A program made the position numbers and the translations under genes. Under the pieces are notes generated by a model. The model made no database searches and was not told the DNA's origin. It saw nothing but the letters and a program-made list of their open reading frames with translations. Below, piece after piece: positions 40,870 through 45,135 of a DNA stretch of 64,000 bases. Position 1 is the stretch's first letter. Every line of letters begins with the position of its first letter. The DNA comes from an uncultured Spirochaetota bacterium (GTDB taxonomy: Bacteria > Spirochaetota > Spirochaetia > Treponematales > Treponemataceae): the NCBI GenBank assembly GCA_944389415.1, contig CALXMF010000005.1:19798-83797 (forward strand), in the 5' to 3' direction.

Positions 40870-42171
40870 ATGAATAAAATAGTTTATTTAGGAATGACAG
40901 GAGATATTATTCATCCAGGATTAATTAATATCATATCAGAAGCAGCAAAACTGGGAGATGTAATGATAGGATTATTAACTGATTCTGCAATTGCTCCGCA
41001 TAAACGATTACCATATCTTACATATGATCAACGTAGAACAGTAATTGAACATATAAAAGGTGTAAAAAGAGTTGTTCCGCAAGACGAGTGGAGTTATGTA
41101 CCGAATCTTCGTAAGTACAAACCAGATATTATCATTCATGGAGATGATTGGCAAATTGGCCCACTCAGTCTTATTCGAAAAGAAGTTTTTCAAGTTATGA
41201 AAGAAATAGGTGGAGAAGTTGTCGAGATTCCCTATACAACCGGAATTTCATCATCAGCACTGCATGATGAAATGAATAGTATCGGAACAACTCCTGAGAT
41301 AAGAATGAAAACGCTCCGTCGATTGCTTAATACAAAAAAGATCATACGTATTATGGAAGCTCACTCCGGTTTATCAGGTTTAATCATTGAGAAATTAGCT
41401 ATAGAAAAATCAGATGGACTTCATGCTTTTGATGGAATTTGGTCATCAAGTCTTACAGACTCAGTTTCAAAAGGGAAACCAGATATAGAAGCAGTAGATT
41501 TGACTACTCGCCTGCAGGACCTGACCAATATTTTAGAATGTACAACCAAACCAATTATATTCGATGGTGATACTGGTGGAAAAACAGAGCATTTTGTATT
41601 TACTGTTAGAACATTGGAAAGGAATGGAATATCAGCTATAATTATAGAAGATAAAATAGGTTTGAAAAAAAATTCTTTATTTGGAACTGAGGTTGAACAA
41701 CATTTAGCTCCGATACCAGATTTCTGCCATAAAATTAGTGAAGGCAAAAAGGCTCAAGTAACAAAAGATTTCATGATTTTTGCTCGATTGGAATCACTTA
41801 TTGCAGGATATTCTGTTGATGACGCATTACAAAGAGCGGATGCATATGTCAAAGCAGGAGCAGATGGAATTATGATTCATAGTAAGGAAAAACATGGCGA
41901 TGATATTAGGACATTCTGTACCACATTCAGAAAAACATTTCCAGACATACCAATTATTTTAGTTCCAACAACATATAATCAATTTACAGAAACAGAGCTT
42001 GCATCATGGGGTGCAAATATTATTATCTATGCGAACCATATGTTGAGAGCATCATATCCAGCAATGTTAAAGGTTGCCCGCTTAATATTGGAAAACGAGA
42101 GAGCTGCAGAGACAGATTTATTGTGTATGCCTATCAAACAAATTCTAGAGTTAATTCCAGGAGGAAAATAA
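40870..42171 (+). CDS. aepX: Phosphoenolpyruvate mutase with N-terminal TagD-like cytidylyltransferase-fold domain
   Basis: AGGAGG RBS. The PEP mutase signature EDKxxxxxNS is present as EDKIGLKKNS. The first 130 aa or so resemble glycerol-3-P cytidylyltransferase (GDDW, TTGISSS) but carry IHPGL instead of HxGH. Confidence 0.85.
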   Translation: MNKIVYLGMTGDIIHPGLINIISEAAKLGDVMIGLLTDSAIAPHKRLPYLTYDQRRTVIEHIKGVKRVVPQDEWSYVPNLRKYKPDIIIHGDDWQIGPLSLIRKEVFQVMKEIGGEVVEIPYTTGISSSALHDEMNSIGTTPEIRMKTLRRLLNTKKIIRIMEAHSGLSGLIIEKLAIEKSDGLHAFDGIWSSSLTDSVSKGKPDIEAVDLTTRLQDLTNILECTTKPIIFDGDTGGKTEHFVFTVRTLERNGISAIIIEDKIGLKKNSLFGTEVEQHLAPIPDFCHKISEGKKAQVTKDFMIFARLESLIAGYSVDDALQRADAYVKAGADGIMIHSKEKHGDDIRTFCTTFRKTFPDIPIILVPTTYNQFTETELASWGANIIIYANHMLRASYPAMLKVARLILENERAAETDLLCMPIKQILELIPGGK

Positions 42172-43301
42172 TGATAGCACCTTCTTTAATTTTTGATACT
42201 TTTAAAAATAATAACATCACATTTTACTGCGGCGTTCCTGACTCACTTCTTAAAAACTTGTGTGCATATATAACTGACCATACAGATAGAAATCATATTA
42301 TCACTGCAAATGAGGGAGAAGCAATTGCACTTGCCTGTGGACATTATATAGCAACTGGTAATCCCGCTGTTGTATATATGCAGAATTCAGGAGAAGGCAA
42401 TGCTATTAATCCATTACTGTCACTCGCAGATCCAGAAGTGTACGCAATTCCACTTATCATGCTGATTGGATGGCGGGGAGAACCAGGTATTCAAGACGAA
42501 CCTCAACATGTAAAACAGGGAAAAGTAACGTGTACGTTACTTGAAACACTTAATATCCCCTACTGCCAACTTAGTACTGCGGAAAATATTGCAAAAAATC
42601 AAATAGAGGAGATCATAAGTTCTGCTACACAACTTAAACGTCCTCATGCAATAATCATACATAAAGATACTTTCCAGTCGTATTCACTTTCTTCCGCAAT
42701 CCCCAGTAAATATGAGTTAACACGAGAACAAGCTATTTCATGTATTATTGAAAATATACCTCAAAATGCATTTTGCGTATCAACAACAGGGATGGCATCA
42801 AGAGAATTATATGAATTACGTGAAAAAAGGCATCAAGATCATAAAAAAGATTTTCTCACCGTCGGATCAATGGGGTATGCATCACAAATAGCACTAGGAA
42901 TTGCTATACAAAAGCAAGAAAAAAAAATTTACTGCATAGACGGGGATGGCGCTGTACTGATGCATATGGGAAATATGGCAATAACAGGAAATTACGGTAC
43001 AGGAAATCTAATTCATATTGTTATTAATAATGGGGCACATGATTCTGTAGGAGGGCAGCCAACAGTTGCACAAAAAATAAATCTCTGTTCAATAGCTTCA
43101 AGTTGTGGCTATGAATTTGTAACAACTGTAGAAACACAGGAATCCTTAATCAGAGTTTTAAGACAAATAGAAACAACACAAATGCACAAACCTGCATTTC
43201 TTGAAATTAAAGTGGCAAAAGGTGCGCGGAAAGACTTAGGACGCCCCCAAAACACTCCCCAAGAAAATTTACAACTATTTATGGAGGCATTAAATGATTA
43301 A
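42171..43301 (+). CDS. aepY: Phosphonopyruvate decarboxylase
   Basis: Start at MIAPSLIF (TAATG overlap with aepX). ThDP motif [16 protein letters not shown]...[10 protein letters not shown]. Confidence 0.85.
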
Positions 43302-45135
43302 ACAGGCAATAATAATGGCAGGTGGGCTTGGTTCAAGACTTAAAGATAGAACAGAACATATGCCAAAAGGATTTATAACTATAGATGGAGTCACTCTTAT
43401 AGAACGGTCTATTCACAATCTTATTGCAGCAGGTGTTTCCAATATAATTATAGGAACAGGGCATTGCAGTGAATGGTTTGATAAACTTGCAGAAAAGTAT
43501 CCTTGCATAAAAACAATCAAAAATGATAATTATAAAAATACTGGCAGTATGGGAACATTATCTTGCTGTATTCCATATATCACAGAATCTGTGTTTCTTC
43601 TTGAATCAGACCTCATCTATGATAGTATTGGATTGGAGATTTTGAAAAATGATTTAAAAGAAAATCTTATACTTGCTTCGGGAAAGACTTCATCAGGAGA
43701 TGAAGTATACCTACAAGCAGACGAAACTGGAAAATTACAGAATTTATCAAAAGATAAAACAAGATTGACCAAAATCTCAGGAGAACTGGTAGGTATCTCA
43801 AAATTAACAGTTTCTGTTCTAAAAAAGATGGATACTTATATGAAAGAACATCTGAATGATATACCCAAAATGGAATATGAAAATGCTCTTGTTGCAGTTG
43901 CGAACGAACAATCCGATGAAAATCAAATATATATAAAAAAAATAGAAAATTTCGTTTGGAGAGAAATTGATAATGAATCACATTTAAAAACGGCTAGTGA
44001 AATAATTTTTCCTCAAATCAAAGAAAATGAATCTACAAGAGAAATCAAAAGAGAAATTCTTTTAAATCCAGGTCCCGCAACAACTACAGATAGTGTAAAA
44101 TATGCTCAAGTATGTCCTGACATTTGTCCTAGGGAACCAGAGTTTGGAGAGCTTATGTCTTGGATTTCCAGAGAATTATCATCGATGGTTGGAACACCAG
44201 AACAAATTGAAACAGTCTTATTTGGTGGATCAGGAACTGCTGCTGATGAAGTCATGATTTCGTCTTGTATTCCACCAAATGGAAAATTACTCATAATCGA
44301 TAATGGAGCATACGGTGCACGATTTACTAAAATTGCATCTATTTATCAATTAAATTATGAGACCTTTACTGCAAATAGTTATGAAGAATTAAATTTTGAA
44401 GCAATATTTCAAAAATTATTAACGGGCAATTTTTCACACTTAGCAGTAGTTTATCATGAAACAACAACAGGCTTATTAAATGACGTTCCCCGTATTTGTA
44501 ATTTTTGTCATGCACATAATATCACTACAATAGTAGATGCTGTCAGTGCCTTTGCAGCAATAGATATTAATATGGAAAGAGACCACATTGATTTTATGGC
44601 ATCAACATCAAATAAAAATATACAAGGTATGGCTGGTGTATGCTTTGTATTTTGTAGACAAAAAGCATTAGATAAAATAAAAGATTATCCAATGCGTAAT
44701 TATTATCTAAATCTGTATGATCAATACAGTTATTTCAAAAAAACAAATCAAACACGTTTTACACCACCTGTTCAAACTTTATATGCACTACGCCAAGCTA
44801 TTCTAGAAACAAAACAGGAAACAATATCTCAAAGATATATTAGATACACTAAATGCTGGAATATTCTACAAAAATCTATAAAAAAAATTGGACTCAAAAT
44901 GTTAGTTCCAGAAAGGCTCCAATCTCATTTAATAACAACAATTATTGAACCAAAAACACCTAAATATAACTTTAATGCATTTCATGATATTGCAAAAAAG
45001 AATGGCTTTACGATATATCCCGGGAAGCTAGCCGCTGCGAACACATTCCGTATTGCAAATATTGGTGATATACAGCCTGCTGAGATGGAAGCATTTACAC
45101 GAATAATGGAGAACTATTTTTTCTCAATCTTATAA
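43294..45135 (+). CDS. Bifunctional phosphonate cytidylyltransferase (PntC/LicC-like) / 2-aminoethylphosphonate:pyruvate aminotransferase
   Basis: N-terminal [10 protein letters not shown] nucleotidyltransferase motif and a C-terminal class V aminotransferase ([13 protein letters not shown]-Lys region [12 protein letters not shown]). Same architecture as T. denticola Tde1415, as I recall it. Confidence 0.85.

Follow-up and report, generated by a model that had tools for sequence, protein, structure and literature searches.

The best-described relative of the genes reported here is a three-gene cluster of Treponema denticola, which encodes a phosphoenolpyruvate (PEP) mutase (Ppm) fused to a cytidylyltransferase-like (CyT) domain, a phosphonopyruvate decarboxylase (Ppd) and a fusion of the cytidylyltransferase PntC to a 2-aminoethylphosphonate (AEP) aminotransferase (AEPT), and which lies in a surface-glycan context (Rice et al. 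2019, PMC6697681; entries 6PD1 and 6PD2). The PntC-AEPT fusion, Tde1415, was crystallised with AEP activated by cytidine monophosphate (CMP-AEP; 6PD1). Its PntC domain prefers AEP and makes CMP-AEP with a kcat/KM of 6.8e4 M-1 s-1, and whole cells of T. denticola give phosphonate 31P signals (PMC6697681). The steps of phosphonyl-tailoring that follow CMP-AEP 'remain enigmatic' (Rice et al. 2019, PMC6697681). Here we analyse a stretch of 64,000 nucleotides (nt) (hereafter referred to as the window; contig CALXMF010000005.1 of assembly GCA_944389415.1), which contains an operon of the same make-up and, beside it, genes that are candidates for the transfer step. The host differs from T. denticola in being an uncultured spirochaete known only from metagenome assemblies. 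An earlier reading of this DNA from its letters alone (the sequence-only reading) had named the T. denticola fusion as its precedent, and rightly so.

In Streptococcus pneumoniae, the Lic pathway uses LicC to make CDP-choline, and LicD1 and LicD2 to transfer phosphocholine to teichoic acids. The window locus would resemble this pathway in that a zwitterionic head group is cytidylyl-activated by an enzyme of the LicC fold and then moved to a glycan, and it also contains a gene of the LicD family. It differs from the Lic pathway in that the head group would be made de novo with a C-P bond, that a choline kinase or transporter is absent, and that LicD is dispensable for the integrity of the locus, being absent in a sister strain. 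A further parallel, drawn from the literature only, is the polysaccharide B locus of Bacteroides fragilis, in which aepX, aepY and aepZ encode Ppm, Ppd and AEPT within a capsular or surface polysaccharide locus for a phosphonoglycan (PMC8942020).

The window operon is an orthologous copy of the published operon in an uncultured Treponema-like organism, and its pathway has already been described. What is new are the neighbouring genes, as transferase candidates, and an altered motif in the CyT domain.

Three coupled genes that very probably convert PEP to CMP-AEP

The operon (window positions 40870-45135) comprises three plus-strand open reading frames (ORFs) packed without gaps, which encode Ppm, Ppd and the PntC-AEPT fusion (ORF1, ORF2 and ORF3, respectively; Table 1). 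We consider it very probable that this operon converts PEP to CMP-AEP, in four steps that we infer from the close homology of its products to characterised enzymes. The Ppm domain of ORF1 would rearrange PEP to phosphonopyruvate, and ORF2 would decarboxylate phosphonopyruvate to phosphonoacetaldehyde, pulling an unfavourable equilibrium forward. The pyridoxal phosphate (PLP) domain of ORF3 (AEPT) would transaminate phosphonoacetaldehyde to AEP, which the LicC-like domain of the same protein (PntC) would join to cytidine triphosphate (CTP), yielding CMP-AEP. This is the route that the sequence-only reading had proposed, with a comparison of the three proteins against characterised families as its check; equivalog scores, catalytic residues and the alignment to 6PD1, as described below, bear it out.

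As the criterion of membership for all three enzymes, we used the curated NCBI equivalog cut-offs, and all three proteins scored above them. ORF1 reached 403.5 bits with the Ppm model TIGR02320 (cut-off, 319.55), ORF2 reached 505.1 bits with the Ppd model TIGR03297 (cut-off, 312.5) and the AEPT domain of ORF3 reached 373.5 bits with the PhnW-AepZ model TIGR03301 (cut-off, 360.8). The corresponding E-values were 3.6e-121, 1e-151 and 1.2e-111, respectively. These strong E-values, together with a gene order that recurs in dozens of genomes (see below), show that the gene trio is no chance pattern.

The C-terminal domain of ORF1 carries the mutase signature EDKxxxxxNS in the form EDKIGLKKNS (residues 260-269, nt 41647-41676), and the signature was present in all 70 Ppm family members of the loci that we fetched. 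When ORF1 was aligned by phmmer with the PEP mutase of Mytilus (1M1B), residues W44, D58, D85, D87, E114, K120, N122, S123, R159 and H190 of the latter were all matched, and G47 was replaced by serine. All of the matched residues except W44 we take to be Mg2+ ligands or catalytic residues of the Mytilus enzyme. The models of the sister families remained far below their cut-offs: phosphonopyruvate hydrolase gave 152.6 bits (cut-off, 374), methylisocitrate lyase 90.3 bits (cut-off, 354) and carboxy-PEP mutase 50.9 bits (cut-off, 420). Thus, ORF1 shows neither of the features that the sequence-only reading had named as contrary to its assignment, namely missing catalytic residues and membership of a sister subfamily. 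By homology, the C-terminal domain of ORF1 is a PEP mutase that would form phosphonopyruvate from PEP.

ORF2 unites the PYR and PP domains in one chain of 376 residues (Pfam TPP_enzyme_N and TPP_enzyme_C), carries the thiamine diphosphate (ThDP) motif GDG-x26-NN at residues 258-287, and matched both subunits of the phosphonopyruvate decarboxylase 9IZ3. We assign it, on this resemblance, as a ThDP-dependent phosphonopyruvate decarboxylase.

ORF3 has the Pfam architecture NTP_transf_3 (PF12804) plus Aminotran_5, and its residues 1-609 aligned to residues 1-609 of 6PD1 with an E-value of 5.9e-249 and 60.7% identity, in agreement with the sequence-only reading, which had described a 613-residue fusion of a LicC-like nucleotidyltransferase to a class V aminotransferase. 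The LicC-like nucleotidyltransferase motif lies at residues 8-17. Among 20 ORF3 homologues, the invariant residues included G10-G11-x-G13-x-R15-L16, K25, E104 (in LESD) and E196 (in MEYE) of the PntC domain, as well as the PLP lysine K441 (in SNKNIQG) and D415 of the AEPT domain. In Tde-PntC, Glu104 and Glu196, both conserved in ORF3, contact the AEP amine and make the pocket narrower, and the counterpart in LicC is Asp (PMC6697681). The AEPT domain also matched the AEP transaminase structures 9KK8 and 1M32 at E-values of about 1e-61. ORF3 is accordingly classed, by alignment, as a PntC-AEPT fusion of the Tde1415 type.

The aminotransferase domain matches PhnW models too, as it would if the genes were catabolic and a PhnW-type transaminase degraded imported AEP, but it fails the PhnW model TIGR02326 (305 bits; cut-off, 400.8) and passes the AepZ-type model. 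Moreover, this domain is fused to a cytidylyltransferase, its gene is coupled to those of Ppm and Ppd, and neither a phosphonatase (PhnX) nor PhnA was found among the scanned locus genes. Gene content and model scores thus effectively refute catabolism, to which we assign almost no probability.

The stop codon of ORF1 and the ATG of ORF2 have one base in common in TAATG (42169-42173), and ORF2 and ORF3 overlap by 8 nt (ATGATTAA, 43294-43301). The translational coupling of all three genes that the sequence-only reading had noticed is therefore present in the sequence, as are the motifs, lengths and coordinates that it had quoted (EDKIGLKKNS, GDG...NN, the LicC-like motif and the 613 residues of ORF3). 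In the mechanical ORF list, the frame of ORF2 opens at 42006. We placed its true start at the ATG at 42171 because of the TAATG and a preceding GGAGG (42160-42164), and because the resulting 376 residues agree with the gene prediction on a sister contig and with the length typical of the family. A scan of 30000-49990 for promoters and terminators gave counts equal to the shuffled expectation and was thus uninformative on the boundaries of the operon, and an Rfam scan of the whole window found tRNA-Leu alone, with no riboswitch or leader near the AEP operon.

A cytidylyltransferase-like domain with an altered HxGH motif

The sequence-only reading was right in taking ORF1 for a mutase and overlooked its N-terminal CyT domain, which belongs to PF01467. 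With this domain, the operon has two nucleotidyltransferase-type domains. PF01467 is fused to 23.6% of Ppm proteins, and some clusters hold both a Ppm-fused and a separate nucleotidyltransferase (Rice et al. 2019, PMC6697681).

The closest characterised counterpart is Fom1 of the fosfomycin producer Streptomyces wedmorensis (5X3D), which has the same two-domain architecture of cytidylyltransferase and PEP mutase. The CyT domain of ORF1 aligned with that of Fom1 at an E-value of 2e-49, with 76 of 134 residues identical (57%), and the C-terminal (R/Y)TxGIS(S/T) motif is kept, the shared YTxGISS sequence reading YTTGISSS in ORF1 and YTPGISST in Fom1. The two proteins differ in the HxGH motif, which is HPGH in Fom1, HWGH in TagD and HYGH in ECT, whereas in ORF1 it reads HPGL (residues 15-18, nt 40912-40923), the second histidine being aligned to leucine. 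They differ also in setting: Fom1 cytidylylates hydroxyethylphosphonate (HEP) in an antibiotic pathway, and the window pathway would have AEP as its endpoint and has a separate PntC. Among 70 CyT-Ppm proteins of the fetched loci, the motif was HPGI in 61, HPGN in four, HDGH in two and HPGL, the window type, in one. The domain therefore has the overall homology of an active PF01467 cytidylyltransferase and lacks its two-histidine HxGH motif. We found no mention of the HPGL/HPGI loss of the HxGH histidine in the literature that we searched. An identity of the domain as TagD (CDP-glycerol) was rejected, the TagD model giving 58 bits against a cut-off of 165.

Because the most conserved histidine has been lost systematically and a separate PntC of proven type is present, the CyT domain of ORF1 is probably not the main source of CMP-AEP; it may be without catalytic function or work by an altered mechanism. 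Alternatively, the domain could be fully active on another phosphonate, for instance HEP as in Fom1, so that the operon would yield two CMP-phosphonates. The domain appears to be under strong purifying selection, with 64-74% identity over spirochaetal and other bacterial loci (35-53% in archaeal-labelled loci), compared with the lower 47-61% of the PntC domain across loci, and the CyTase domain to which it is so similar makes CMP-HEP (PMC6697681). The second histidine, however, is present in Fom1, TagD and ECT and replaced in ORF1 as well as by isoleucine in the 61 relatives mentioned above, and the window holds no alcohol dehydrogenase that would make HEP. We regard a second CMP-phosphonate as quite improbable.

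Distribution of the operon

An ORF3 identical to that of the window is present on a 121.5-kb metagenome scaffold in ENA, and the next-best homologues are 66-67% identical. We scanned species-representative genomes with an alignment of 20 ORF3 sequences and kept 80 loci, among which the window's own species did not appear, the best match having 66% identity. A scan with ORF3 as the single query found no relative, its patterns being too query-specific. The 80 loci were mostly from Spirochaetota, with T. putidum and T. vincentii among them at about 60% identity; others were labelled Methanomethylophilaceae/Thermoplasmata, Elusimicrobiota, Prevotella and Eggerthellaceae. Gene order was counted in the 47 species-level loci that had 3.6 kb or more to either side. 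Ppm and Ppd were found beside the fusion in 46 of these loci, the window order in 41, and a CyT domain adjoining Ppm in 45. For the T. denticola group, the gene order was seen in the representatives from T. putidum (L051) and T. vincentii (L071). Cultured relatives with the AEP operon include Breznakiella homolactica RmG30, which has a TagF-like homologue at another place in its genome, and Brucepastera parasyntrophica RmG11, which has a LicD gene close to the operon. As the module has been published and is common in Treponema, the window operon is another copy of it and no new system.

Seven contigs of metagenome-assembled genomes (MAGs) with archaeal labels (Methanomethylophilaceae, Thermoplasmata and other methanogens; L022, L034, L036, L037, L041, L055 and L058) carry PntC-AEPT fusions that are 60-63% identical to that of the window. 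CyT-Ppm was nearby in all seven, and Ppd in six (not detected in L055). The CyT motifs in archaeal-labelled loci differ, being HPGN and HDGH. This distribution suggests that the module has been transferred between bacteria and archaea of the gut, provided that the bins are free of contamination.

In several Treponema loci (L050, L067, L075 and L083-L085), a divergent ABC importer, composed of a fused double permease and an ATPase, and a helix-turn-helix (HTH)-nucleotidyltransferase lie immediately upstream of the AEP operon. They may recover AEP, or a related head group, from outside the cell.

A low-GC glycan locus with two strain variants

The operon is embedded in a surface-glycan locus, as the sequence-only reading had stated, and all genes of this low-GC block lie on the plus strand (Table 1). 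The GC fraction is 0.30-0.35 across 30-50 kb of the window, 0.40-0.45 in most of 1-30 kb and 0.38-0.42 in 50-64 kb. Pfam and NCBIfam scans placed at the opening of the locus a fused ABC exporter and an outer-membrane capsule-assembly protein and, further on, glycosyltransferases of the GT4, GT2 and GT8 types and a UDP-glucose dehydrogenase. Another GT4 and a heptose-nucleotide module follow past the TagF-like gene described below. No SIS/GmhA homologue was found anywhere in the window; in many related loci, SIS/GmhA separates the GHMP kinase from the NTP-transferase-phosphatase, which here stand side by side. An initiating Bac_transf gene was likewise absent from the window, and the window-type locus also has no Wzx or Wzy.

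Table 1. Positions of the AEP operon, its neighbours and the enclosing locus in the window
Feature	Position	Strand	Basis or remark
Low-GC surface-glycan locus around the AEP operon	26869..53714	+	Pfam/NCBIfam scans
MsbA-like fused ABC exporter and Wzi-like outer-membrane capsule-assembly protein	26869-30401	+	Opening of the locus
LicD-family phosphotransferase (270 aa)	33749..34561	+	LicD (PF04991), E 3.8e-33, full model length
Ribosome-binding site AGGAGG	40857..40862	+	7 nt ahead of ORF1 ATG, read from the sequence
ORF1 (433 aa), CyT-like + Ppm	40870-42171	+	
ORF1 N-terminal domain, Fom1-type CyT-like (aa 1-140)	40870..41289	+	PF01467; Pfam CTP_transf_like, E 2.4e-12
ORF1 C-terminal domain, predicted PEP mutase (Ppm)	41290..42171	+	TIGR02320, active-site residues
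ORF2 (376 aa), predicted Ppd	42171..43301	+	Start overlaps ORF1 stop, TAATG
ORF3 (613 aa), predicted PntC-AEPT fusion	43294-45135	+	
ORF3 N-terminal domain (~aa 1-245), PntC, LicC-like CTP:AEP cytidylyltransferase (predicted)	43294..44028	+	NTP_transf_3, E 9.1e-10
ORF3 C-terminal domain, AEP aminotransferase (AEPT, AepZ-type; predicted)	44029..45135	+	TIGR03301
ORF4, YS (899 aa), YidC-like + LtaS/EptA-like	45174..47873	+	Candidate outer-face head-group transferase or partner
ORF5 (412 aa), TagF-like phosphotransferase	47933..49171	+	Glyphos_transf (PF04464), Pfam E 2.6e-11
HddA-like GHMP kinase and HddC/GmhB-like NTP-transferase/HAD phosphatase fusion, heptose-nucleotide type	50278-52599	+	Side by side

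The gene of the LicD-family protein lies 6 kb upstream of the AEP operon, in a segment that varies between strains; in an alignment with FKRP (6KAJ), its WDDDMD motif falls in the DxD region. Metagenome contigs fell into two variants of the locus, which have 99.4% nucleotide identity over 35440-55135 and are different upstream. In the window-type variant (22 contigs read), the segment 30580-35440 encodes a 303-residue protein without a family match, a 345-residue GT-B-like protein, a GT4, LicD and a GT2. In the other variant (two contigs; L167, 109-4600), these genes, LicD among them, are replaced by those for a 752-residue Wzx-like flippase, a second UDP-glucose dehydrogenase and a GT8. Constant in both variants were the AEP operon and the two genes that follow it (ORF4 and ORF5).

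From this context, CMP-AEP would serve as the donor for the decoration of a glycan or glycolipid of the cell surface, assembled by the glycosyltransferases encoded around the operon. Decoration of a surface glycoconjugate by the product is deduced from the context together with the published T. denticola data, and this gut spirochaete most likely displays phosphonate on its surface.

Two neighbouring proteins with YidC/LtaS-like and TagF-like features

ORF4, which we call YS, begins with a YidC-like domain (residues about 2-220) that matched 60KD_IMP (PF02096; E 4.4e-24), scored 88.6 bits with yidC_oxa1_cterm (TIGR03592; cut-off, 84.3) and matched YidC structures at an E-value of 1e-6. Its closest named relative, about 61% identical, is from Candidatus Treponema faecavium. 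The C-terminal part (residues about 480-899) is of the alkaline-phosphatase superfamily, with a weak Pfam match to Sulfatase (E 2.3e-5). In the AlphaFold2 (AF2) model of YS, with a predicted local distance difference test score (pLDDT) of 81, the top Foldseek hits were LtaP/LtaS, PbgA/YejM, MCR-1 and EptA (4UOP, 6XLP, 9NWW and 5FGN). D497, T534, H710 and D773-H774 were invariant in 29 homologues; in the model, T534 is the first residue of a helix (534-543), and D773-H774 follow a strand (766-771). This set of residues has the pattern expected of a competent transferase of the alkaline-phosphatase superfamily with a threonine nucleophile, and would correspond, by analogy, to E255, T300, D475 and H476 of LtaS. 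Counting by hand in the model, we arrived at about 13 transmembrane segments, about seven of them beyond the YidC-like core, with the catalytic domain outside the cytoplasm.

YS thus resembles LtaS, EptA and PbgA in the fold of its C-terminal domain and in its Asp, Thr nucleophile and Asp-His metal set, and differs from the known LtaS/EptA proteins in having the YidC-like domain at its N-terminus. The groove arginine of YidC (R366 in Escherichia coli) maps by register, in a mapping made by hand, to S43 or L47 of YS, neither of them basic, and the family consensus at this position is threonine. As this arginine is missing and the YidC-like domain is fused to about 680 further residues, we did not file YS as a housekeeping YidC insertase. 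Databases annotate the YS family, which is large in Treponema, as 'YidC/Oxa1 insertase'. Our literature search, outside of which most subscription journals lay, returned no description of a YidC-LtaS-type fusion.

Enzymes of the TagF family make phosphodiesters from CDP-alcohols, releasing CMP. A sequence search of ORF5 against the PDB gave no match at an E-value of 0.1, and a fold prediction was therefore needed. The best Foldseek hit of the AF2 model (pLDDT 82) was TagF (3L7K; E 1.8e-11, TM-score 0.55-0.57). ORF5 is accordingly similar to TagF in fold, and differs from it in being a short, single-module protein of 412 residues. H149, H152 and H259 as well as the motifs SPSWG, RPHP and ISDFSG were invariant in 24 homologues, and the conserved histidines may correspond, by motif only, to His444 and His584 of TagF. 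At its N-terminus (residues 1-44, 47933-48060), ORF5 has an invariant LYIDPGTGS followed by a long hydrophobic helix (residues 10-44 in the model). This helix looks like a membrane anchor, and could be a contact point for the YidC-like domain.

Recurrence of the pair beside head-group modules

A metagenome scan with a YS alignment yielded 79 loci, in which ORFs were called and their proteins clustered; 78 of the loci were anchored on YS. A TagF-like gene was found within 6 kb of YS in 52 of these 78 loci and directly adjacent to it in 44, and YS itself often occurred in tandem, in up to four copies. Besides the AEP operon, three alternative modules were seen next to the pair (L002, L004, L088, L093, L098, L110, L123, L128 and others): an NTP-transferase fused to a CobD/HisC-like PLP enzyme (about 610-660 residues; FrbH-like architecture), with no Ppm nearby; a class-V aminotransferase with a TagD-like cytidylyltransferase of 167 residues; and an ABC importer with an HTH-nucleotidyltransferase. 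Some loci contained two modules and several copies of YS and the TagF-like gene. In 11 loci, the block had 5 kb or more of visible flank on either side, and in eight of these a nucleotidyltransferase-type module lay within 8 kb. Since every module has a nucleotidyltransferase and most also have a PLP enzyme, the arrangement fits a supply of cytidylyl-activated amino-alcohol phosphates or phosphonates.

TagF-like genes adjoin the AEP operon in Treponema (L006, L015, L048 and others), in Leptospirales-like MAGs (L008-L012) and in an Elusimicrobiota MAG (L065). The last of these has, in a row, genes for a YS-like protein, a TagF-like protein, a second YS-like protein, PntC-AEPT, CyT-Ppm and Ppd; its YS-like proteins have diverged, and they flank the TagF-like gene directly upstream of PntC-AEPT (3674-9957). 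In the Leptospirales-like MAGs (for example L012, 5119-7114), the AEP operon is accompanied by a TagF-like gene and a stand-alone gene for a YidC-like protein of 228 residues, which is 44% identical to residues 2-219 of ORF4 (hhalign E 3.8e-55). These two distant lineages independently support a link between the pair and the AEP operon. The 597-residue protein encoded next to the YidC-like gene in L012, tested as a possible EptA-like half of YS that had become separate, showed no relationship (hhalign E 0.095).

Candidates for the transfer of AEP

The sequence-only reading had stated that the transferase is not known for spirochaetes. This holds for the literature within our reach, most subscription journals lying outside it, in which we found no assigned AEP transferase and no TagF-type enzyme in phosphonate clusters beyond Rice et al. 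2019. The locus, for its part, offers three candidates: LicD, the TagF-like protein and YS with its YidC/EptA-like domains. The TagF-like protein would transfer AEP, together with or upstream of YS, and LicD would be a second, strain-specific candidate. We rank the TagF-like protein first, giving it an about even chance of being the AEP transferase. LicD comes second, at a distinctly lower confidence, and possibly acts in addition in the window strain. A lipid-linked route via the periplasmic domain of YS is a further possibility.

We propose, tentatively and with rather more doubt than conviction, that the TagF-like protein and the specialised YidC-like protein (usually fused to an EptA/LtaS-like domain) form the missing transfer machinery of phosphonyl-tailoring. 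Under the same joint proposal, the pair would install AEP on spirochaete surface glycoconjugates, possibly via a lipid-linked intermediate at the outer face, and elsewhere would use cytidylyl-activated amino-alcohol phosphates supplied by interchangeable nucleotidyltransferase and PLP modules. As a corollary, the CyT domain would be a non-catalytic, regulatory or scaffolding domain on a thermodynamically unfavourable mutase.

Several points weigh against the reading of the operon and its neighbours given here. Product, acceptor and transferase have all been deduced from sequence and context, and a cytoplasmic nucleotide donor would be out of direct reach of the periplasmic domain of YS. Of 32 species-level AEP loci with 8 kb of flank or more, 11 have a TagF-like gene within 10 kb and 21 do not. 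Those without one include loci of the T. denticola group, which carry Wzm/Wzt, pyruvyl transferase and methyltransferases. In the T. putidum representative (L051, 11961-21626), the AEP operon is followed by Wzm, Wzt with a C-terminal carbohydrate-binding domain, a pyruvyl transferase, a Branch-type glycosyltransferase, an acyltransferase, two methyltransferases and WecB, which make up a polysaccharide locus of the ABC-transporter type; within 10 kb it has no TagF-like gene, YS or detectable LicD, in contrast to the window locus, which has all three. Furthermore, the TagF-like sequences are not sorted by the adjacent head-group module, so that the enzyme may carry out a generic step, its donor being produced elsewhere in the genome. 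For TagF-like proteins and YS, the nearest neighbour had the same module label in 30 out of 44 cases against a permutation mean of 17.4, in a test confounded by phylogeny; mean identities within and between labels, subject to the same confounding, were 55.4% and 55.8%; and paralogues in two-module loci were not paired by module. Finally, the CyT domain is strongly conserved and may therefore still be catalytic in spite of HPG[IL].

The lack of sorting by module also agrees with a different division of labour, in which LicD is the AEP transferase, as expected from the analogy with the Lic pathway, and the TagF-like protein and YS build or modify another, unrelated part of the glycoconjugate, of glycerol- or ribitol-phosphate and similar to lipoteichoic acid, from a CDP-alcohol made elsewhere in the genome. 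LicD is encoded in the same plus-strand locus and keeps its DxD motif. In a cultured Brucepastera (L032), a LicD gene precedes the Ppm gene of the AEP operon by about 2.3 kb (two genes), and LicD-like phosphotransferases have been named as expected partners (Rice et al. 2019, PMC6697681). In the strain with 99.4% identity to the window, however, the locus contains the AEP operon, YS and the TagF-like gene but no LicD, and with the window's protein as the query LicD was detectable in only two of the 32 well-flanked AEP loci, compared with the 11 that have a TagF-like gene. As to the CDP-alcohol, Pfam and NCBIfam scans of the locus genes matched no model for CDP-glycerol or CDP-ribitol synthesis and no TagD/TarI/TarJ-type gene, and the CyT domain fails the TagD model, as described above. 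We judge this division of labour to be unlikely, although a serious contender.

The structural neighbours of YS bear on another alternative, in which CMP-AEP feeds a phosphonolipid or phosphono-glycolipid and the EptA/LtaS-like domain of YS may move lipid-linked AEP to its final acceptor, in the manner of EptA, which uses phosphatidylethanolamine. LtaP/LtaS, PbgA, MCR-1 and EptA, to which the C-terminal domain is structurally closest, handle lipid head groups at the outer face, and the set of metal ligands and nucleophile in YS is complete. The nearest NCBIfam model of LicD is the glycolipid cholinephosphotransferase Mf1, at a score far below the cut-off, and clusters for phosphonates that contain 'sulfatases' have been assigned to the phosphonolipid type (PMC8942020). 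On the other hand, we saw neither a CDP-alcohol phosphotransferase nor a diacylglycerol-type transferase in the window, glycosyltransferase and sugar-nucleotide genes dominate the locus, and the periplasmic location of the YS domain is based on the topology derived by hand. We regard a lipid end product as improbable.

Implications

With this operon, a published pathway gains a further host, an uncultured one, and in this respect the finding is chiefly a solid annotation. Phosphonate decorations are hydrolysis-resistant zwitterions that resemble phosphocholine, and phosphocholine affects host interaction in other bacteria. For the question that the field has left open after CMP-AEP, the locus provides a short list of testable transferase candidates, and the two variants form a natural strain pair that differs in LicD and has the TagF-like and YidC/EptA-like genes in common. 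The TagF-like and YidC-like proteins are paired beside AEP operons in three lineages. If this pairing is functional, the two proteins would make up a new head-group transferase family, and the YidC fold would have been put to a new purpose.

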